11,320 bases of DNA from a virus: the UHGV virus genome UHGV-0170512; one strand, 5' to 3'. A model generated the notes under the pieces. The model had not been told where the DNA came from. It did no database searches and saw only the letters and a list, made by a program, of their open reading frames with translations. Of this stretch, positions 1-11,320 are shown in pieces (position 1 is the stretch's first letter; every line of letters begins with the position of its first letter). The translations under genes were made by a program, and so were the position numbers.

Positions 1-758
1 CCACAGTGTGGACAGGGCCAGTACCAGCGACGGCGATCACCACGGTTATAGAGCGACAGGATCCCCGTGGTTGGTGGAGCCTCATGCGGTGAAGTCCGTC
101 GCCATTTCACATCCTTCACATCCCTGCCGGGGGAACTCTCCACCAGCGTCATACCACTGGACATAAATGTGGTGGTACGTTTTGAGGCAAGAGAGAAAGC
201 ATCCCCCTCGCCATCAATATCTTCCGGAAAACGGTCATAATCCGTCAGCGCGACGCATTTATAATCTGATGAGGACATGATATTGACTGACGGCCAGCCG
301 ATTTTCAGGTAGTTACCAGCAAGGAATGTTCTGTCATAAACGTTGTTGTCATTTTTGTTCGGACTCAGGCGACTGACCACTTCCGGGCTGACGCGAAACG
401 TTCTGGCGAGTCGTTTTTTGGAGTGTTCGCGGGCTTTTTCCTCCGTCATCTGAATGATCAGCATATCAGCAGGATCGCAAATCACGTTGTAAATCACCCA
501 GCCGTCAATCAGGCCGATAGTCTTGCCGGTTCGTGCCGGGCCAACAAATATCACTGCGTCGTATTCACGCGAGGCCAGGCAGTTCATCGGCTCAATAACA
601 TACGGTGCCACCAGCGGATCCCACGGGACTGAGTTCCCTGCCCCCATGGGCACCCGCATATACTGAGCAACGGCATCAGCAACCCGCATTCGTCTCGGTG
701 CGCGAAGGATATAACCTGAATCGGTTCGTGCTGCCTTTGCGGTTTCCTGATTCAGCAT
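1..758 (-). CDS. Phage terminase large subunit (lambda gpA-like), N-terminal part; gene continues past the window start
   Basis: Minus-strand frame is open from ATG at 758-756 to the window edge; absent from the ORF track because no stop lies inside the window. My hand translation starts MLNQETAKAARTDSGYILRAPRR, contains a Walker-A-like GPARTGKT, and ends WYWPCPHC at the edge, resembling lambda gpA (..ACPHCG). The ATG overlaps the stop of the upstream small-subunit gene by one base (TAATG junction). Confidence 0.8.
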   Translation of the reverse strand, partial: MLNQETAKAARTDSGYILRAPRRMRVADAVAQYMRVPMGAGNSVPWDPLVAPYVIEPMNCLASREYDAVIFVGPARTGKTIGLIDGWVIYNVICDPADMLIIQMTEEKAREHSKKRLARTFRVSPEVVSRLSPNKNDNNVYDRTFLAGNYLKIGWPSVNIMSSSDYKCVALTDYDRFPEDIDGEGDAFSLASKRTTTFMSSGMTLVESSPGRDVKDVKWRRTSPHEAPPTTGILSLYNRGDRRRWYWPCPHC

Positions 759-1249
759 TACTCCTCCTGCTGTAATTCCTCCTCATCATCCGCACCTGCT
801 TCGGTCACCCGCAGGGCTATCTGATCGCGCAGATCATCAATAATGGACTGAACACGGCTCACAGCGGCAGGCTGCAGACCGCAGTCACGTTCCAGAATAT
901 CCGGTAATGTCTCCAGCACCTGCACGACCGCTTTTGCCCAGATGGCAAACTCCCGTCTGACATCACTGGCCGGAATGAGTTGTGCCGTTTCCTGTTCGAA
1001 CTTAAGACGCTCACGTTCAGACTGATACCAGGCTTTGCGTTCATGTGGATCCATTTCGCCCTCAGCAACCGGCGGTGGTAACCCCATAAATTCAGTCAGA
1101 ATATCGGTCAACCGGTATAGCTTGAGTTTGTCATGTCCACCAGCGGGACGAATGTTTTTCAGTCTTGCCACGACAGTCTGGCGGTGCAGACCAGATAAAG
1201 CCGCCAGTTGATTAATATTCAGCACCAGGTTTTTCAACTCATGATCCAT
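758..1249 (-). CDS. Phage terminase small subunit (Nu1/NohA-like, N-terminal HTH)
   Basis: 163-aa ORF from the track. N-terminus MDHELKNLVLNINQLAALSGLHRQTV has the helix-turn-helix layout of Nu1-type small terminases; acidic C-terminus; directly precedes and overlaps the large-subunit gene. Confidence 0.7.
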   Translation of the reverse strand: MDHELKNLVLNINQLAALSGLHRQTVVARLKNIRPAGGHDKLKLYRLTDILTEFMGLPPPVAEGEMDPHERKAWYQSERERLKFEQETAQLIPASDVRREFAIWAKAVVQVLETLPDILERDCGLQPAAVSRVQSIIDDLRDQIALRVTEAGADDEEELQQEE

Positions 1250-1863: not shown

Positions 1864-2388
1864 TCAATTAATCAGCAGTTCAGGCTGTGTCACCTGCAAG
1901 ATGTATTCATGCTCGACAGCCAGGACACGCTTCTCTTTCTTCCGTTCGTTCATTAACCGACTGCCGATCGTACCTTTCAGCTTTGAGCGTGTTTCTTTGG
2001 TGGCGTAGCGGTGCTGCATTTCTTCGCCAATTGCCATGCGGCGGCTCAGTTGCTCTGCCATCCAGTTGAATGCTGCGATATAGCTCTCCTTGATTGCCGC
2101 AGCAGCTTTCCCGGTGAACCCCATCACAACCATGATCCAGCCATCTTTCGTCAGGCTGTACATCGGGCGAACCTTGCCCTGCTCATCGATATAATCAGCC
2201 GACGCAAAATTGCGTTGGCTAAACTCACGCGAGCAATCAGCCTTAACCTGCTCGATTTTCCTGAGAACATCACCGTGTCGCTTGCCGAAGTACTTGGCAA
2301 TTTTTCTGGATGTGGTAACGACCTCTCCGTTTTTGGCTTGCACCATTTCTCGGAAGTCGAAGGCTGGAATAACTGAATGATTATTCAT
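1864..2388 (-). CDS. rha: Rha-family phage regulatory protein
   Basis: Track ORF 1864..2424 (GTG start); I prefer the internal ATG at 2388-2386 (MNNHSVIPAFDF...). Contains TTSRKIAKYFGKRHGDVLRKIEQ, the signature region of the Phage_pRha family as I recall it. The start choice between 2388 and 2424 is unresolved. Confidence 0.65.
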   Translation of the reverse strand: MNNHSVIPAFDFREMVQAKNGEVVTTSRKIAKYFGKRHGDVLRKIEQVKADCSREFSQRNFASADYIDEQGKVRPMYSLTKDGWIMVVMGFTGKAAAAIKESYIAAFNWMAEQLSRRMAIGEEMQHRYATKETRSKLKGTIGSRLMNERKKEKRVLAVEHEYILQVTQPELLIN

Positions 2389-2442
2389 AGCGTCTTTACC
2401 TTTTAGAAAGTGAGCCTGTCTCACAGAAAAGCCGCCCGAGAG

Positions 2443-2729: not shown

Positions 2730-3212
2730 TCATCGAAGGCATTGCGTCCTGATATATTCCTGAAGCGTTCTCAGTGCTGTCTGGTCTCTGATGATTCCGT
2801 CCCGGATACCGAGAACGTTTCGTCCAGCAACTGGAGAGAGTTCGACGGTGGCATCATTGCCCATGCCGGAGGCGCTGGAGGTTTCGGCTGAGGATGGCAC
2901 AGGGCATTTTCCTTTGACGAGCACCCGACCACCATTATCAAGCTTGCGCCGAAGAGCATCATTTTCAGCTTTCGCATCAGCCAACTCCTTCGTGTATTTA
3001 GCATCGAGTACATCAGCAGCACGCTGGCGTTGCTGCATGTCAGTAATGGTGGCGGTCGCCTGCTTCAGCTCACTGACTTTTTTATCACGCTGTTCTTTGT
3101 AGGCGATGGCGTTATCACGGTAATGATTGACCGCCCACGACAGGCAGACGATGATGCAAATAACCAGAGCATAAATAATCGCGGCGACTCTGCTCACTGA
3201 TCTATCCCCCAA
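2730..3212 (-). CDS. Rz: Rz i-spanin (inner-membrane spanin subunit)
   Basis: 160-aa ORF; N-terminal segment [38 protein letters not shown] closely parallels lambda Rz ([39 protein letters not shown]), with coiled-coil periplasmic domain and C-terminal Cys. The true start may be a few codons inside the track ORF; it overlaps the endolysin 3' end. Confidence 0.85.
2771..2977 (-). CDS. Rz1: Rz1 o-spanin lipoprotein, embedded in the +1 frame of Rz
   Basis: Track ORF 2771..3022 trimmed to the internal start [22 protein letters not shown]; lipobox-like VVGC followed by a proline-rich segment ([11 protein letters not shown]) parallels lambda Rz1 (MLKLKMML...VVVGC...PPPPPAW). Lies entirely inside Rz. 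Confidence 0.75.
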
Positions 3213-3727
3213 CAGGCTAATGCGCTTTCCTGGTCACGACGAATAACCTGTCCATAGCAGTTATTTGAACGTATGCGGCAATCGCGCCCACCATCTTTTA
3301 TCCACCAGCGAATCGCCTCGCATGCACTCTTACGATCACCGGCATTCAGCCGCTTATAAAACGTCGACGGGAAACACTTACCGGGGCCAATGTTATAGGG
3401 ACAAAATGACGCTATACCCGCTTTCTGTGGTTCGGTCAGTGGTACTTTAATATTGCGCTCCACCCATGCCAGCGCCTTATCACGTTCAATAGCGTTAACC
3501 TGGTCGCATTTTTCCTTCGACAGCTTCATTCCCGGTATGACGGGCTTACCATCCACCATTGTGGCACCACGACAGATGGTCCATATACCGGAACCATCGC
3601 GGTATGCCGTAGTGTGGTTACCCTCTTTTTCATCCAGAAACTGGTCAAGTATTTGAGGAGCAGACGAGCCTGCAGCAATCAGCGCCAGAACGGCAGCCGA
3701 CAGGCCGTATCTGATTTTTGCGTTCAT
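3194..3727 (-). CDS. SAR endolysin (phage lysozyme, T4/P21 R-type, GH24) with N-terminal signal-anchor-release domain
   Basis: 177 aa. N-terminal hydrophobic, Gly/Ala-rich segment [16 protein letters not shown], then catalytic-triad spacing E-x8-D-x5-T in [16 protein letters not shown], parallel to the P21 R lysozyme. Sits in a lysis cassette next to a pinholin. Confidence 0.85.
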
Positions 3728-3790: not shown

Positions 3791-4141
3791 TTAAGGTTGT
3801 GATTCCGGAGGAGTCTTCAGAGAACCAGTAATTCTTCCTGGTAGCTTTCCTTTGTAGGTTATCCACACATTCTGCGCATCTAAAATTACGGGGCGCTTTT
3901 CCGGCGACTGCTCATCCCCTTCACATAACCCGGCAGCAACATCCAGGAAGACCTGTCTGATGCTCCTTCTGGCTGCTGCCTCATAAAACTCCAGCGCGGC
4001 ACCTTCAACACGGTCCAGCGAGATGTCCAGGTCAAAAATTTCACCGTCAAAGCGTTTTTTGTCCCGTAACGCTACAGTTACCGTAACTTTATTCTCAAAA
4101 TTGCGGATCCCTTTCACAATCAGTTCATAGTTTTGAGTCAT
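3791..4141 (-). CDS. Hypothetical protein between holin and endolysin (YdfR/DUF1327-like by position)
   Basis: 116-aa ORF with good SD (GGAGAG, 8 nt before the ATG at 4141-4139) lying inside the 3' end of the holin gene; 4-nt gap after the holin stop. A small gene (ydfR) occupies the same holin-endolysin slot in the K-12 Qin prophage as I recall; sequence-level family membership is not verified. Confidence 0.55.
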   Translation of the reverse strand: MTQNYELIVKGIRNFENKVTVTVALRDKKRFDGEIFDLDISLDRVEGAALEFYEAAARRSIRQVFLDVAAGLCEGDEQSPEKRPVILDAQNVWITYKGKLPGRITGSLKTPPESQP

Positions 4142-4145
4142 TGAA

Positions 4146-4361
4146 TTACTCTCCCCGTGCCGCCTTACGACGGTCCTCTCTGATTTTGAAATACAGGTTA
4201 GTCAGATATGTCAGCAGCCCAAACAGCAGACTTCCCAGCACGCCTATTGCCGCCCACTGAGACGGGGAAACCCTGTCCAGCAACTGCAGGAACCAGTAGC
4301 CCGTTCCCACCGCTGACGTGGTGTATGACACACCTGTTGTGATTTTTTCCATCTGGTCCAT
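4146..4361 (-). CDS. Pinholin, phage 21 S21-like (class II holin) with dual-start motif
   Basis: Track ORF 4146..4466 trimmed to the internal start [10 protein letters not shown]. The C-terminal two thirds, [51 protein letters not shown], are near-identical to P21 S21 as I recall it; 71 aa. Met1 and Met4 (MDQM) resemble the S21 antiholin/holin dual start. Confidence 0.85.
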
Positions 4362-4510
4362 ACCCCGTCTCCCGTTATCCGGAAGCTGACAACAATAAAA
4401 AAGCCACCAGTTAACTACTGATGGCTCTGATAACTCATGCAAGCGTCTCAGACGACCCACTGACACTACCGGTGAGTTTAACGATACCTTCCATTTGACT
4501 GGCTCACTTT

Positions 4511-5117: not shown

Positions 5118-5453
5118 ATGAAGTGGATTGTGATTGATACAGTTATCCAGCCATCATGCGGAATATCTTTTTCAGTCATATGGAGTAAAATAAAATTAAT
5201 AATCTGGTATCAATCGGATGCTTTCTTACCTCCTGAAAGTATATTTACACTGACTCACACAGGCATCATGCTCAATAACAAAGTGCTACCTGTAACCATT
5301 TACAACGTAGTACCATTCAATAAAACATTCTGGAATTTAATCAAAAACAGCCAGGAATGCCCTACAAATACAGATAACGTATTGAATGAATGCTTTAATA
5401 ACCGTTGCACTCTGCAAATATGTCCTTATGGACTAAAACAACAAAGTCCATAA
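5118..5453 (+). CDS. Hypothetical 111-aa protein, AT-rich convergent moron ORF
   Basis: Only credible plus-strand ORF in the window. Strong SD AAGGAA 7 nt upstream of the ATG at 5118, preceded by a ~250 bp very AT-rich stretch (4870-5117). Visibly lower GC than the phage backbone; 5 Cys; no recognisable family. Confidence 0.45.
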
Positions 5454-5487
5454 GGAGTTTACTCACATCTGACAAAATCAATATAAA

Positions 5488-5509
5488 CAGCCCCTCCGGA
5501 GAGGGGCTG
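5488..5509 (-). terminator. GC hairpin, likely Rho-independent terminator for minus-strand transcription (possibly also stops the convergent plus-strand ORF)
   Basis: CAGCCCCTC-CGGA-GAGGGGCTG, 9-bp perfect stem; on the minus strand it is followed by TTTATATTGATTTTG. On the plus strand it sits 35 nt after the 5118..5453 stop but has no U-tract. Confidence 0.4.
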
Positions 5510-5900
5510 GAGAGTGGCGCTATGTGCCATTGCATGGTGCCGGGTGCCTCCCGGTGAATTCAGTACCAGCACCTGAATCCGCGATTATCCCATATACCTA
5601 CTCGCTGATTGCCCCTCCGCACAGGGGGATTCACCATGCCAGTTTCTTTTAACAAACTCCCCGCAAACCAGACAACAGTCAACCGCCTGAATTGTGAAGT
5701 ATTTAAAAATTTCTCCCGCTAACTGATACCCGGCTAACAGTCTGGCGTTTTCTTTTTCAGCAACGGAAAAGCAACAACCACCACACCTGCCACCAGCACA
5801 CCGTCAGCCAGCACTGACATTATCCGGCTGCTGCAATGCCATTCACAAAAACAGTAAGCAATCACTTTTTACCGTAACAGGTGATAATCCAGATATGTAT

Positions 5901-6364: not shown

Positions 6365-6441
6365 TGGCGCGTTGTACTGGATTCGAACCACTGACCGATT
6401 GCTTAGAAGGCAATTGCTCTGTCCTGCTGAGCTAACAACGC
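6365..6441 (-). tRNA. tRNA-Arg (anticodon UCU)
   Basis: Minus strand GCGTTGTTAGCTCAGCAGGACAGAGCAATTGCCTTCTAAGCAATCGGTCAGTGGTTCGAATCCAGTACAACGCGCCA: 7-bp acceptor stem, D arm GCTC/GAGC, anticodon loop CTTCTAA, T loop TTCGAAT, encoded CCA. One G:G mismatch in the T stem. Confidence 0.8.
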
Positions 6442-6454
6442 AGAATACCGATAA

Positions 6455-6531
6455 TGGACCACCATCGGGGACCCGAACTCCGCGCAACCAGCTTCGAAAG
6501 CTGGCGCTCTTTCCTGATGAGCTAATGGCGG
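6455..6531 (-). tRNA. tRNA-Arg (anticodon UCG)
   Basis: Minus strand CCGCCATTAGCTCATCAGGAAAGAGCGCCAGCTTTCGAAGCTGGTTGCGCGGAGTTCGGGTCCCCGATGGTGGTCCA: acceptor stem with one G:U pair, perfect anticodon stem CCAGC/GCTGG, loop TTTCGAA, encoded CCA. Non-canonical T loop TTCGGGT (G at position 58) and one A:C mismatch in the T stem. Confidence 0.7.
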
Positions 6532-6538
6532 TATGTGA

Positions 6539-6614
6539 TGGTGGCCCTTGCTGGATTTGAACCAGCGACCTGGCGATTATGAGTCGCTCGCTCTCACCAC
6601 TGAGCTAAAGGGCC
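6539..6614 (-). tRNA. tRNA with CAU anticodon (Ile2-type, ileX-like, or Met)
   Basis: Minus strand GGCCCTTTAGCTCAGTGGTGAGAGCGAGCGACTCATAATCGCCAGGTCGCTGGTTCAAATCCAGCAAGGGCCACCA: perfect acceptor and T stems, anticodon loop CTCATAA; closely resembles the E. coli ileX tRNA as I recall it. Confidence 0.85.
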
Positions 6615-6736: not shown

Positions 6737-7456
6737 TTAACGAACTCTGACTACATTAATTTCAAAGTCATCAATCTGCCCGCTATTAAGTATAACGAAT
6801 GCAGAACTCCCATTACTGTACGATTTCGATAAAACCAGACGATCATCATAGCGTGCAAGAACGTAATACCAAGTATTCTCATAGTGGATCGTCTGATATT
6901 CCCTCTTAAACTGGGGTTTATACCAACCGGCAATAAGAGAGAATGTCCAGAAATAAATCATGAATCCAGCCATAATAAACTCAATTCGGTGATGGCGAAT
7001 AAAAGACACTTCCGAAAAACATTTGACTGAAATAAGTCTTCTTCCTGACCTGACAAAAAGCGTAATTGTAAAGGCAGCAATAACACAAAAAAACAGCACA
7101 TCTGGCTCAACGTGCTGATGAATTACCGAAAACTCCAGAACAGGCGGAATAAAAAGCAGCAATATTGCCAGAAAAAGTCTGATAAAACTCAAATTCTGTA
7201 TATTGTTTTTTTGTTTTATGCCTAAAAAGAAAACAATACCTACTCCCCATCCAGTAAGGAATATAACGATAACGCTCACAGCATAAAACAAACTTCGGGC
7301 CACATCATCAACGCCAACCCCGACGATCCACCATGGAAAGCCATAGTAAAAGGAAGTCCCCCATCCATAGAAATAAGCGCTTCCCCATCCAAGACAGCCC
7401 ATATAAGCAATAAAAAGTGAAGAGTTCCTCAGCAGAGTGCTGTCATCCATACCCAT
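6737..7456 (-). CDS. Uncharacterised polytopic membrane protein (about 5 predicted TM helices plus ~60-aa C-terminal soluble tail)
   Basis: 239-aa ORF, first gene after the tR'-like terminator. Successive hydrophobic, aromatic-rich segments (FIAYMGCLGWGSAYFYGWG..., LFYAVSVIVIFLTGWGVGIVFFLGI, FIRLFLAILLLFIPPVLEF, VLFFCVIAAFTITLFV, IMAGFMIYFWTFSLIAGWY). Visibly AT-rich. Likely start is the second ATG (7450), with GAGAG 6 nt upstream. Confidence 0.6.
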   Translation of the reverse strand: MGMDDSTLLRNSSLFIAYMGCLGWGSAYFYGWGTSFYYGFPWWIVGVGVDDVARSLFYAVSVIVIFLTGWGVGIVFFLGIKQKNNIQNLSFIRLFLAILLLFIPPVLEFSVIHQHVEPDVLFFCVIAAFTITLFVRSGRRLISVKCFSEVSFIRHHRIEFIMAGFMIYFWTFSLIAGWYKPQFKREYQTIHYENTWYYVLARYDDRLVLSKSYSNGSSAFVILNSGQIDDFEINVVRVR

Positions 7457-7695: not shown

Positions 7696-8517
7696 CTATC
7701 GCGTTACCCTCTTTAACTGCCGCTCCGCCCATGCCTCTTCAATGTCAAACCGAACCACCAACGTATCGTAAAAGCGTTTCACTGATTTTTTCCACGTATC
7801 AAGCGTGATAGCACTCGTCACTTTGCGTATGGCATTAAATGCCTCCGTTGATGGTAGTCTTTCATAGCCCCGACCGCCACAACGCTGGCAGTTCCTGATT
7901 ACAGGCATACCCCGTTTTTCCGACTCTTCACGATGAATGGCAACACCACGCCCACGGCAGTCTTTACAGGCAGTGGAAATCTCCCCCTTCCCTTTACATT
8001 CAGGACAAGAAACTTTCACCACCTCCCGGATTTTTTTCCATTCTTCCCAGTAAGACGGATACACACCTTTCGTACACTTTGCCCATACCGGCGGCTTACC
8101 ATCCGGATACTGGACCTTGTTTGTAAAAACTACGCTTTCAATAAATTTTTCCCCATAGCAACAAGGGCACTGCTTTTTACTCGCTGCGCTGCGGGCATAA
8201 TCCTCAAAAGCGTACGAAGCCATAATGCGCATCACTACCGGTTTTATTTCTGCCGGAAGTTTTCTTAACGCCGCCACGCGATCGCACTGACTTAATGCAT
8301 AATCTGCCAGTAATTCTGTTGCCCGCGCCCTGTCATTCATACTAATACCCATTTTCCCCAGGAACGCAGAAAATCCCATCTCAGCCCGGTTTTGTGTCAT
8401 ACCCTGCGCAGCCATCACATCAGTGATGCTCAGCGCATCTTTTGACGTCGAGACGGATGCATCAGTCAGGCCTGGCGATTTTGGGGAATAGTATTTCGGT
8501 AAATCTTCCAGTCTCAT
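7696..8517 (-). CDS. Q-like late antiterminator (QuuQ-type, zinc-finger Cys pairs)
   Basis: 273-aa ORF with several CxxC pairs (CPCC, CPEC, CKDC, CQRC); positioned after rusA and before a promoter-terminator pair and the lysis genes, the canonical Q position. ATG overlaps the rusA stop (ATGA). Confidence 0.6.
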   Translation of the reverse strand: MRLEDLPKYYSPKSPGLTDASVSTSKDALSITDVMAAQGMTQNRAEMGFSAFLGKMGISMNDRARATELLADYALSQCDRVAALRKLPAEIKPVVMRIMASYAFEDYARSAASKKQCPCCYGEKFIESVVFTNKVQYPDGKPPVWAKCTKGVYPSYWEEWKKIREVVKVSCPECKGKGEISTACKDCRGRGVAIHREESEKRGMPVIRNCQRCGGRGYERLPSTEAFNAIRKVTSAITLDTWKKSVKRFYDTLVVRFDIEEAWAERQLKRVTR

Positions 8518-8888
8518 TTTTGGACCTGCCCGTCATGCATTATTTCGTAAATCTTCACGCCCAACCGACCACCAGGAACGAGCTGACCGCGCACAATATT
8601 GATTTCATCAAACTGCTCGTCGTCTATAAGTAGTCCGGCATGCGTCAGCGCATCCAGTGGTGCTTTCAGGATATTGTCCAGGTCACGACGGCGCTTATCC
8701 GGTGGCTCTGCAATCACCTTTATCGCCAGCCTTCCGGACAGGCTTAATTTCAGCTGCTGCTGGCGAACAATAAGCGCCACAGCCCGGCGATAACGCTTTC
8801 CCTCCTCCGAGATAAAATATGTGCTGCCACGGCGTCGCCAGTAAGTGTTCACCGTCGGCGGGTAAGGTAAAACCAAATCTATGAGCAT
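8514..8888 (-). CDS. rusA: RusA Holliday-junction resolvase
   Basis: 124 aa; PPTVNTYWRR... and DKRRRDLDNILKAPLDALTHAGLLIDDEQ parallel E. coli RusA (PPSNNRYYRH..., [30 protein letters not shown]). Strong SD (AGAGGTGA) upstream. Confidence 0.85.
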   Translation of the reverse strand: MLIDLVLPYPPTVNTYWRRRGSTYFISEEGKRYRRAVALIVRQQQLKLSLSGRLAIKVIAEPPDKRRRDLDNILKAPLDALTHAGLLIDDEQFDEINIVRGQLVPGGRLGVKIYEIMHDGQVQK

Positions 8889-8900
8889 CAGTCACCTCTT

Positions 8901-9950
8901 TTACCCAAGCACGCCGGTTGCAAAGGCGTGATCAAGAAAACGAAAAATTAAATCAACCTGAGAACCATGCTTTTCTTCGAACGCCAGCGGATCCGCATGA
9001 AGCTCGTTGTGATGCTCCCGACACAGCGGTAGCGTGAAAATATCGTGGGCCTTTGTTCCCATCCCTCCCTGACCGTGACCAATCAGGTGATGGGGATCGT
9101 CGGCTGGCTGACCACAACACGCACACGGCTGTGTCTTCACCCAGCGCGTATATTTCTCATTTACCCAACGGCGACGTTTAGGTCGCCTCATGAAAGATTC
9201 CGGAGAGTCCGGATCAACGGCAATGCTGACCACCGCCTTTTCCAGTGGTGGGTTCTGTTGCTGGTGGGCGTGAAGCAGCGGCGTAAGATTTTTTGTGCGC
9301 TGTTTCAGTATGCTGGTGGCGGTCTGCTCTCCCGGTACGATGTCGCTTTCGCGGTACACCGCGCGGATTTTTTCCGCACGTAACCCCAGAGAACGACGTA
9401 ATACTGCCTCCGGAAGCGCGTCCGCCACTTGATTGCAGACCGCCCACCAGGATAATTCAGCCAGCGATAACTCCCGCTCCTGCGTGCCATTCATTGCATG
9501 GCGTATGACGTCAATCATCCATGCTGCCAGGTTTTGTTGAGCAAGTTGCTCAAGTGATTCGGATGTCTGGTCACGCAGCTGGTTATCGCAGTGCCAGCAC
9601 AACACCATCGCGCCGGTGCCGTAACGATGTATGACGGTTTCACTGTGATGATAGTCACCATGAGGCCACTGGCAGGATTTGACATGACGCAACAGCCAGT
9701 CAGACAGTGCACCAGCGCCGCCAGCAGCACGAATCACACGCTCATTGCTGAAAAACCGCAGTAATGATTTATCCTCCGCCAGCGGCTGGCGAACGGCAGG
9801 GACGATGCCGGACGGCAGACCACGCATGCTTTTCGGTTCCGGCTCCACCAGCACTCGAGGGTTATGGAATACCTGCATGGATTCACGGCCTGGTTTAAGG
9901 ACCACCAGCCCAAGTTCCGGTACCGGAACAGGTCGAAGTAATACCCGCAC
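8901..9950 (-). CDS. DUF968 family protein (YdfU-like) with C-terminal Cys/His (HNH-like) motif
   Basis: 349-aa ORF, GTG start with strong SD GGAGGT 5 nt upstream. C-terminal CACCGQPADDPHHLIGHG...HDIFTLPLCREHHNELH. Same length and genomic context as YdfU of the K-12 Qin prophage as I recall. Confidence 0.65.
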   Translation of the reverse strand: MRVLLRPVPVPELGLVVLKPGRESMQVFHNPRVLVEPEPKSMRGLPSGIVPAVRQPLAEDKSLLRFFSNERVIRAAGGAGALSDWLLRHVKSCQWPHGDYHHSETVIHRYGTGAMVLCWHCDNQLRDQTSESLEQLAQQNLAAWMIDVIRHAMNGTQERELSLAELSWWAVCNQVADALPEAVLRRSLGLRAEKIRAVYRESDIVPGEQTATSILKQRTKNLTPLLHAHQQQNPPLEKAVVSIAVDPDSPESFMRRPKRRRWVNEKYTRWVKTQPCACCGQPADDPHHLIGHGQGGMGTKAHDIFTLPLCREHHNELHADPLAFEEKHGSQVDLIFRFLDHAFATGVLG

Positions 9951-10300: not shown

Positions 10301-10329
10301 GGAAAAAACAAAACCCGCCGAAGCGGGTT
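10301..10329 (-). terminator. Rho-independent terminator downstream of hok
   Basis: Minus strand AACCCGC-TTCG-GCGGGTT followed by TTGTTTTTTCC; about 70 nt after the hok stop. Confidence 0.55.
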
Positions 10330-10397: not shown

Positions 10398-10553
10398 TTA
10401 CTCCTCAGGTTCGTAAGCTGTGAAGACAGCGACCTCCGTCTGGCCGGTTCGGATTCGTACCTCGCAGAGGTCTTTCCTCGTTACCAGTGCCGTCACTATG
10501 ACGGTTAAACAGATGACGATCAGGGCGATTAACATCGCCTTTTGCTGCTTCAT
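10398..10553 (-). CDS. hok: Hok-family type I toxin (HokD/RelF-like), 51 aa
   Basis: Hand-translated, below the ORF-track size cutoff: MKQQKAMLIALIVICLTVIVTALVTRKDLCEVRIRTGQTEVAVFTAYEPEE. Single TM segment and Hok/Gef signature; SD AGGAGAAG 6 nt upstream of the ATG. Confidence 0.85.
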   Translation of the reverse strand: MKQQKAMLIALIVICLTVIVTALVTRKDLCEVRIRTGQTEVAVFTAYEPEE

Positions 10554-10789
10554 AGCCTGCTTCTCCTTGACCTTTCGGTCCGTAAGAGGCTAATCTCTAT
10601 GTGTCGCATAGATATGGCCTCAGATTAATGTTAAGCGTCTTGCAGGACGCGTAATGTTAACTGGGGCTTTTCTCTATCTGCCTTTTGGTGTTCATGCCTG
10701 AGGCAGATAGCCTCAAGCACCCGCAGCAATTCTACTTAACTCACGTCACCTCGCCAATATGAAATCAATCAGAAAGGTGATCCATAAAA

Positions 10790-11320
10790 TCACTCCTTCT
10801 CTTCTTTTCCGTAGTGGAGTTGGCCAATTTTGATAAGAGGGCGCCCCTGAGATTTGCGGTGTAGATTGGTATCGCGCAGAGAATACACACAGCCACAATA
10901 TTCCTGCTGATAGAATTTTTCGCGCTTGCTGATTTCAATCATACGGGACGAGCCGCCCTGCTTGCGCCAGTTATAATCCCAGTACACCATACCCGGATAA
11001 TGCGCAACAGCTCGCCGCCCACACTCGTTAACCTGCTGCATATTTTTCCAGCGTGAAATGCCCAGTGAACTGCTGATCACACTGAAACCATTTTCAGCAG
11101 CGTACAACGCTGTCCGCTCAAAACGCATGTCAAAACACATGGTACAACGGATCCCCCTCTCAGGCTCCCATTCCATTCCTTTGGCACGTTCAAACCAGTT
11201 GTCGGTGTCGTAATCAGCATCGATAAACGGCACGCCGTGTTGTTCAGCAAAGCGAATATTTTCATCCTTACGAATTAAATACTCTTTCTGAGGATGAATG
11301 TTCGGGTTGTAGAAAAAGAT
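10790..11320 (-). CDS. Cys-motif protein, tentatively QueH/DUF208-like (epoxyqueuosine reductase family); 5' end beyond window
   Basis: Track ORF 10790..11233 (GTG) continues stop-free in frame to the window edge (..[42 protein letters not shown]..). Motifs FYNPNIHP, C-x2-C (CTMC) and YCGCVYS match my recollection of DUF208/QueH; the family call is not verified. Confidence 0.5.

Follow-up and report, generated by a model that had tools for sequence, protein, structure and literature searches.

The window analysed here is the whole 11,320-nucleotide stretch presented as UHGV virus genome UHGV-0170512. All of its genes lie on the minus strand, and the region corresponds to the late-regulatory and lysis region of a lambdoid phage. 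At its right-hand edge it contains most of a queH gene, with a hok toxin gene and its sok/hok leader just downstream, in agreement with the initial annotation, which had placed a possible QueH-like (DUF208) gene directly upstream of hok. The features are as follows.

758-1249, minus strand: DUF1441 gene
1864-2424, minus strand: Rha gene
2730-3212, minus strand: Rz gene
3194-3727, minus strand: lysozyme gene
3791-4141, minus strand: DUF1327 gene
4146-4466, minus strand: holin gene
6365-6614, minus strand: three tRNA genes (Arg-UCU, Arg-UCG and one with anticodon CAU)
7696-8517, minus strand: Q antiterminator gene
8514-8888, minus strand: RusA gene
8901-9950, minus strand: DUF968/HNH gene
10312-10329, minus strand: terminator-like hairpin with T run after hok, found by scan, the first such site downstream of queH
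10398-10553, minus strand: hok (HokD-type) toxin gene, 51 aa (Pfam HOK_GEF, E=1.2e-23; hokD in matching genomes)
10551-10722, minus strand: hok mRNA leader and sok antisense region (Rfam RF01794, 108.3 bits against a gathering score of 59)
10729-10757, minus strand: promoter-like site TTGGCG-17-TAGAAT, 33 bases after the queH stop (consensus scan; part of a downstream block conserved in 10 flank types)
10790-11320, minus strand: queH, 3' 531 bases, comprising codons 46-221 of 221 and the stop at 10790-10792 (open frame, Pfam, identity to the IHE3034 gene, RefSeq name)
10793-10873, minus strand: basic C-terminal tail of QueH, 27 residues, outside the Pfam domain (the Pfam match stops at residue 149 of the 176-aa fragment)
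10889-10897, minus strand: CGC motif (YCGCVYS), Cys187-Gly188-Cys189, in invariant columns of the QueH alignment described below; the reverse complement reads TGT GGC TGT
11135-11146, minus strand: CxxC motif (RCTMCF), Cys104 and Cys107 in full-length numbering, in invariant columns of the same alignment

On the minus strand, positions 10790-11320 form an open frame of 176 codons plus a TGA stop (complement at 10790-10792) that runs off the window edge. It is frame 1 counted from base 11320, and the other two frames of that strand contain many stops over the same interval. Because the true start of queH lies beyond the edge, a listing of open reading frames showed only an internal piece with a GTG start at this locus. 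In Pfam, the 176-aa product falls in PF02677 (QueH, formerly DUF208), with E=1.7e-52 and 178.5 bits over profile positions 27-174 of 175; the curated cut-off is 23.5 bits, and the match is far above chance. The product also matches PHROG 3217 (E=6e-130), a family labelled "unknown function". Megablast searches place the stretch containing hok and queH in many E. coli chromosomes (98.9% identity), where RefSeq annotates "epoxyqueuosine reductase QueH" followed by hokD. A search of NCBIfam with the window product returned no family match, so that no model in the library searched accounts for the RefSeq name. The exact protein already bears the name QueH in RefSeq for approximately 1000 E. coli genomes, and the assignment itself is not new.

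A full-length copy is provided by the prophage of E. coli IHE3034 (L001:14432-15097; 666 bases, 221 aa, WP_000150294.1). Over the 531 shared bases the two genes are identical in DNA, with neither synonymous nor non-synonymous differences; what lies beyond the right edge of the window is the 5' 135 bases of queH (45 codons, including the CCAPC motif) and its leader. The full-length protein aligns with the structure of Thermotoga maritima QueH (7lc5_A) with E=7.6e-22, residues 20-196 of the query matching positions 4-178 of the chain at 33% identity. To define the conserved positions of the family we used an alignment of 28 sequences, the phage protein and 27 diverse QueH at 33-86% identity, T. 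maritima 7lc5 included, taken from among the 3163 matches (E<0.001) that a scan of 1.84 billion representatives gave. Eighteen columns are invariant (C25, C26, N52, I53, E58, Y59, R62, W87, E99, R103, C104, C107, K137, Q184, C187, G188, C189 and S192), and the full-length phage QueH keeps all 18; those from N52 to S192 fall inside the window fragment and every one of them is present there. The N-terminal metal-site motif of the family, CCxPC or CCxPD, reads HSCCAPCS in the full-length IHE3034 gene, which provides the presumed motif of the window copy, this part of the gene lying beyond the window. C29 of this motif is near-invariant (at least 90% conserved in the alignment) and is kept in the full-length phage copy; T. 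maritima QueH has Asp at position 29, whereas the phage protein has Cys, like most family members. The 27-residue basic tail is common to proteobacterial chromosomal QueH, and the T. maritima chain, as far as it aligns, lacks it; a putative role in tRNA binding is our guess.

The two refutation tests set with the initial assignment thus came out in its favour: profile searches returned QueH and not another family, and the CxxC and CxC cysteine motifs, invariant across the alignment, are conserved here. From these sequence comparisons we regard it as virtually certain that 10790-11320 is the last 80% (the C-terminal 176 codons) of a genuine queH and belongs to the QueH/DUF208 family. The prophage QueH is likely to have kept the predicted epoxyqueuosine (oQ) reductase activity.

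The gene order of the window is the same as that of the IHE3034 prophage, which runs YdaT, O-like, DUF977, queH, hokD, DUF968, RusA, Q, tRNAs and lysis genes, with a cro/cI-like switch also upstream of queH and an integrase at a tRNA-Ser site. In IHE3034, in E. coli B and in the window, queH comes after the replication genes and before the Q antiterminator and reads in their direction. The slot is therefore equivalent to the nin region of lambda, as had been supposed at the outset. The comparison with K-12 made in the initial annotation is equally borne out: at the matching place the cryptic prophage Qin carries relB-relE-hokD, that is, relBE occupies the slot of queH directly upstream of hokD, and the module found here is a different one. 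Screening of the queH leader and gene against Rfam revealed no riboswitch, of the preQ1 or any other class, the only element found being sok, downstream. A PADLOC search with QueH gave no defence-system match. The tRNAs of the IHE3034 prophage are Ile, Lys, Thr and Gly, and none of the phage tRNAs near queH, there or in the window, is a queuosine (Q) substrate; the target of QueH must therefore be host tRNA.

We found queH in 995 of 5426 complete E. coli genomes (18%), at 1017 places, nearly all chromosomal, and at least 80% of its length is present in 985 of the 995 carriers. The cobalamin-dependent counterpart queG occurs in all 5426 genomes, and thus alongside every queH. A second queH allele is found in E. 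coli B/REL606, E. coli C and ATCC 8739. In E. coli B the surrounding Qin-like prophage has decayed, its integrase (frameshifted), a methyltransferase and DUF968 being pseudogenes, yet queH is intact. BL21(DE3) was expected to carry queH like E. coli B; instead the gene has been deleted, DUF977 abutting hokD, and this loss came without obvious harm. K-12 has no queH. In IMG/VR, 190 contigs contain the gene, and the best 80 of these 190 encode a protein with 100% identity. Among 50,697 deposited phage records we identified a single credible isolate with queH, Escherichia phage HannyBb, a temperate phage isolated as virions, whose QueH shows 96.8% amino acid identity and is annotated as "hypothetical". 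Matches in Staphylococcus and Listeria "phage" records, in a 328-kb "Acinetobacter phage" record and in unannotated faecal contigs were judged to be host or uncertain DNA and were not counted. The S. aureus genome has a QueH of its own. A literature search retrieved no paper on an E. coli prophage QueH, and carriage of queH by lambdoid phages appears to be unreported in the literature searched.

The relatives of the gene provide clues on its origin. With one genome taken per species, the closest are those of E. albertii (100% amino acid identity), Scandinavium (92%), Kluyvera (91%), Enterobacter (88-90%) and Symbiopectobacterium (87%). Lambdoid neighbours (Hok, DUF977, O-like and YdaT) accompany queH at one of 80 such loci, that of E. 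albertii, and at none of the 79 loci outside Escherichia. In Scandinavium and Enterobacter quasihormaechei the Pfam content of the flanks is metabolic and non-phage, with dehydrogenase, hydrolase, DeoR and LysR-type proteins. Homologues at 79-86% identity reside in ordinary chromosomal contexts in Erwinia, Providencia and Photorhabdus; in Erwinia the order is purL, queH, a two-component sensor kinase/sigma-54 response regulator pair, a glnB-like PII gene, flavohaemoglobin and glyA, and in Providencia queH adjoins a tmcA-like gene. The clade to which the phage protein belongs retains 75-80% identity even to copies from Sphingomonas, Neisseria and Stenotrophomonas, and comparison of these sequences indicates that it evolves very slowly. 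At synonymous sites, divergence from all the cellular homologues compared (Erwinia, Providencia and Photorhabdus) has reached saturation, and so neither the donor nor the date of capture can be fixed. The G+C content of queH (0.47-0.50) is not clearly different from that of its flanks and gives no clear signal of foreign DNA.

Comparison of the two phage-borne alleles, that of the window and IHE3034 against that of E. coli B and HannyBb, gives dS of about 0.28-0.37, dN of about 0.012-0.016 and dN/dS of 0.03-0.06. Such values imply strong purifying selection on queH while phage-borne, which argues against a dead passenger. The flanks of the E. coli-type gene were compared at 82 loci and sort into at least five upstream and at least 10 downstream types, the gene between them being identical. 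What stays constant across flank types is a block of approximately 70-90 bases upstream, queH itself and approximately 75 bases downstream. The gene with its leader and trailer thus travels as a unit, independently of the flanking phage genes. Inside the downstream block, and accompanying queH in all contexts, lies TTGGCG-17-TAGAAT, which is probably the promoter of the hok/mok mRNA.

The upstream block calls for closer description. A scan for the sigma-70 consensus detected no promoter reaching threshold upstream of queH, and the element described here emerged instead from the comparison of leaders. In all five upstream contexts of phage-borne queH ATGCTACACT is conserved. The constant block includes gaTGcTACACT, in which TACACT ends 34 bases ahead of the ATG. 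In Scandinavium, Kluyvera, E. quasihormaechei and Symbiopectobacterium an extended -10-like motif, ATGCTACA(A/C)T, lies 43-44 bases from the ATG, with the same spacing as in the phage gene; Erwinia has it at a comparable distance, and two other Enterobacter genomes have near-variants of it at the same place. Furthermore, GCTCTGATGCTACA is common to the leaders of the Scandinavium and the phage queH. The motif is preceded by no recognisable -35 element, and no Shine-Dalgarno sequence was seen at queH. We infer from these shared leaders that TGcTACACT might be an extended -10 promoter captured together with the gene. A scan for terminators found nothing resembling one in the interval from the queH stop to hok, and queH is consequently not a classic moron with both promoter and terminator.

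QueH is an iron-sulfur epoxyqueuosine reductase that converts oQ into Q at the wobble position 34 of tRNA-Asp, -Asn, -His and -Tyr, and QueA forms this oQ substrate on tRNA. E. coli has no de novo synthesis of B12, which must be imported. QueH is described, in three reports, as a cobalamin-independent, iron-dependent and non-orthologous alternative to QueG in the final step of Q biosynthesis (PMC6461909; PMC9508795; PMC13443448). The cobalamin dependence of the QueG step in E. coli is attributed to Frey 1988 in PMC4646009, and QueG is one of the few cobamide-dependent enzymes of this species (PMC11841063). Deletion of queG left the growth of a metE mutant with cobalamin unaltered (PMC11841063).

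In this context, we put forward that a housekeeping queH was acquired by a phage along with a weak promoter belonging to that gene, the extended -10-like TGcTACACT. The gene would be expressed in the lysogen in the manner of a moron, and after induction also by read-through of the early-right operon. Host Tgt and QueA would supply oQ-tRNA, such that a lone QueH would suffice for the conversion of oQ34 into Q34, freeing the last step of Q synthesis from B12 when this is scarce or its uptake has been lost. The gene would in this way be a single-step add-on to tRNA modification and not part of a phage pathway for deazaguanine in DNA. Of the manipulation of tRNA queuosine suggested by the initial annotation, the last step, from oQ to Q, is plausible; anything beyond that step is not. 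Taken as a whole, the proposal that prophage queH is a captured housekeeping gene which makes Q maturation independent of B12 and is expressed in the lysogen seems to us fairly probable. Its more specific part, expression in the lysogen from the gene's own promoter with a benefit under B12 limitation, is more tentative, and we would give it a little less than an even chance. The loss of queH in BL21(DE3) and the growth result of PMC11841063 weigh against a firm fitness benefit of Q over oQ.

Other explanations have to be set against this one. The gene could lack a promoter of consequence and be transcribed, after induction only, as one member of the antiterminated early-right operon; it would then finish Q on host tRNAs so as to tune NAU/NAC decoding in late genes or to change the susceptibility of tRNAs to anticodon nucleases. 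The setting agrees with such a lytic role, since queH lies in the same orientation inside the operon running from replication genes to Q, with no terminator-like site in the scanned upstream region or before hok, no canonical sigma-70 promoter was found, and an active phage, HannyBb, carries the gene. However, queH is intact, with dN/dS of approximately 0.05, in the decayed prophage of E. coli B, among truncated genes and with a frameshifted integrase, and it is accompanied by a promoter-like element common to its chromosomal homologues. Nor do the phage tRNAs of the window and IHE3034 include Q substrates, and we know of no reported difference in decoding between oQ and Q. Confinement to the lytic phase is thus unlikely in our view. 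We find it very unlikely that the prophage resets the wobble base from oQ to Q for its own ends and not merely to bypass B12. Two versions of this are conceivable, an altered susceptibility of tRNAs to anticodon nucleases cutting at Q34 (colicin E5-type toxins or tRNA-targeting defence) and a tuned NAU/NAC decoding of late genes. If either were true, Q versus oQ status would be a phage-controlled trait that sets B/REL606, with queH, apart from K-12 and BL21(DE3), without it.

A neutral passenger, redundant with queG and kept only by hitch-hiking in a mosaic nin-like region, would fit with the universal presence of queG in E. coli, the deletion in BL21(DE3) and the restriction of queH to 18% of genomes. 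Against it stand the low dN/dS of 0.03-0.06 at a dS of about 0.3 between phage-borne alleles, the integrity of all family-invariant residues, the 985 of 995 carriers with at least 80% of the gene and its persistence amid pseudogenes in E. coli B, which together make this explanation decidedly unlikely. A reductase that has acquired another substrate (an anti-defence role, say, or a different epoxide or nucleoside) might be suspected from the PHROG label "unknown function" and from the basic C-terminal tail outside the Pfam domain. Yet the tail and the invariant residues are common to chromosomal orthologues, to which the protein is 88-92% identical, PADLOC gave no match and the sequence has no phage-specific signature; a new function is extremely improbable. 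The initial annotation had also raised 7-deazaguanine chemistry, in which QueH would belong to a phage pathway placing a deazaguanine derivative in DNA. Phages do modify their DNA with 7-deazaguanines through enzymes of the Q pathway (PMC6884629), but the 2019 survey by Hutinet et al. found no homologues of QueA, QueG or QueH in the deazaguanine-encoding viruses analysed (PMC6884629). The genes that such a pathway needs, for a DpdA/Tgt-type transglycosylase and for preQ0, are missing from the annotated stretches: tgt/dpdA, folE, queC, queD, queE and queA are not annotated in the IHE3034 prophage from the integrase to the tail genes, nor is any of them in 17 kb around queH in HannyBb, where the annotation is mostly "hypothetical" and the evidence accordingly weaker. 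The neighbouring genes whose presence had been proposed as a check thus lend the idea no support. Moreover, the oQ used by QueH arises on tRNA through QueA, and identity of the protein with housekeeping chromosomal QueH reaches 88-92%. A role in DNA modification is, on these grounds, barely credible.

The implications depend on activity. If QueH is active, the final Q step would be independent of B12 in carrier strains, and strains would differ in tRNA modification under B12 limitation, with B/REL606, C, ATCC 8739 and many ExPEC strains on one side and K-12 and BL21(DE3) on the other. A gene specific to Q maturation of tRNA on a temperate phage has been little discussed, yet 18% of complete E. 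coli genomes have it in a prophage. The surprise has its limits, for the family, the reaction and the annotation of the protein were already known, and the predicted activity duplicates that of QueG.

QueG (yjeS in E. coli) is predicted to catalyse the same reaction as QueH, from oQ34 to Q34 on tRNA. It depends on cobalamin and a [4Fe-4S] cluster, whereas QueH has an unrelated fold and needs no cobalamin; queG belongs to the core chromosome, while queH is accessory and prophage-borne. Cellular QueH is of the same family as the phage protein, with the same invariant residues (CC..C, CxxC, CxC and the others) and 79-92% identity between the latter and the enterobacterial chromosomal genes named above. 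The difference lies in the setting, since the phage gene resides in a lambdoid prophage, beside hok/sok in a nin-like region, in a host that already has QueG. The relBE pair of K-12 Qin is toxin-antitoxin cargo unrelated to queH, which takes that slot instead in E. coli B, E. coli C, ATCC 8739 and many ExPEC strains. Finally, the 7-deazaguanine clusters of phages (DpdA with FolE, QueD, QueE and QueC; PMC6884629) likewise consist of queuosine-pathway genes carried by phages, but these act on DNA via DpdA, whereas here a lone QueH is found without DpdA or preQ0 genes.

The conservation of the QueH clade to which the E. coli prophage protein belongs is, judged from sequence identity, unusually high. 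Among the matches from a scan of one genome per species (loci L095-L174), chromosomal queH genes from Alpha-, Beta- and Gammaproteobacteria encode proteins with 75-80% identity to the E. coli prophage QueH, among them those of Sphingomonas, Neisseria, Stenotrophomonas and Pseudomonas. Two records of the same scan appear at odds with their titles: L173, titled Bacillus subtilis SK7B5, and L124, titled as a Candidatus Avacidaminococcus MAG, both carry a proteobacterial-type queH (77% and 86% identity, respectively). The DNA upstream of the L173 gene is similar to that of the Stenotrophomonas loci L155, L163 and L165. Both assemblies are probably contaminated or mis-binned.

The flanks of queH are variable in some of the IMG/VR loci. 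In L077, a G+C-rich hairpin, ccgcccgaaagggcgg, precedes the conserved queH leader and replaces the DUF977 end usually found there. Sequence divergence in L027 and L089 begins about 75 bases past the queH stop, and thus hok is not invariably the downstream neighbour of queH. The gene itself may also be missing: it is absent from BL21(DE3) (L175, NC_012971.2 1591068-1591844), where hokD lies 262 bases from a shortened DUF977 gene, whereas the same site in E. coli B (L092) and REL606 holds an intact queH together with a methyltransferase remnant. BL21(DE3) and E. coli B/REL606 therefore provide a natural near-isogenic pair, queH-minus versus queH-plus.

Elsewhere in the window, an sRNA-family match, three tRNA genes and two ORFs matching PHROGs of unknown function were identified:

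5118-5453, (+): 111-aa ORF; PHROG 4407, a family of unknown function, is matched at full length with E=3e-73
5479-5668, (-): strong match to the STnc100 sRNA family (Rfam RF02076), scoring 132 bits where the gathering score is 47
6365-6614, (-): tRNA-Arg(UCU), tRNA-Arg(UCG) and a CAU-anticodon tRNA, just downstream of Q
6737-7456, (-): ORF of 239 aa located between the tRNA genes and Q; hit to PHROG 1521 (E=6.5e-86), a family of unknown function

None of the three phage tRNAs is a queuosine substrate, the CAU-anticodon species being either Met or lysidine-Ile. The STnc100 match is placed downstream of Q, with the holin gene on one side and the tRNA array on the other. The 239-aa ORF has no Pfam family, gives a faint AbiC match in PADLOC (E=0.0037), and its counterpart in IHE3034 is annotated as "hypothetical". 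The 111-aa ORF, with all remaining window genes on the opposite strand, may represent cargo with its own transcription.

A further feature was found in the IHE3034 prophage, which carries a full-length queH:

18100-18578 of the IHE3034 prophage locus (L001): relB/relE-family pair, adjoining a cI-like repressor

In the K-12 Qin prophage relB/relE reside upstream of hokD, whereas the queH-bearing IHE3034 prophage retains such a pair, but beside its repressor.
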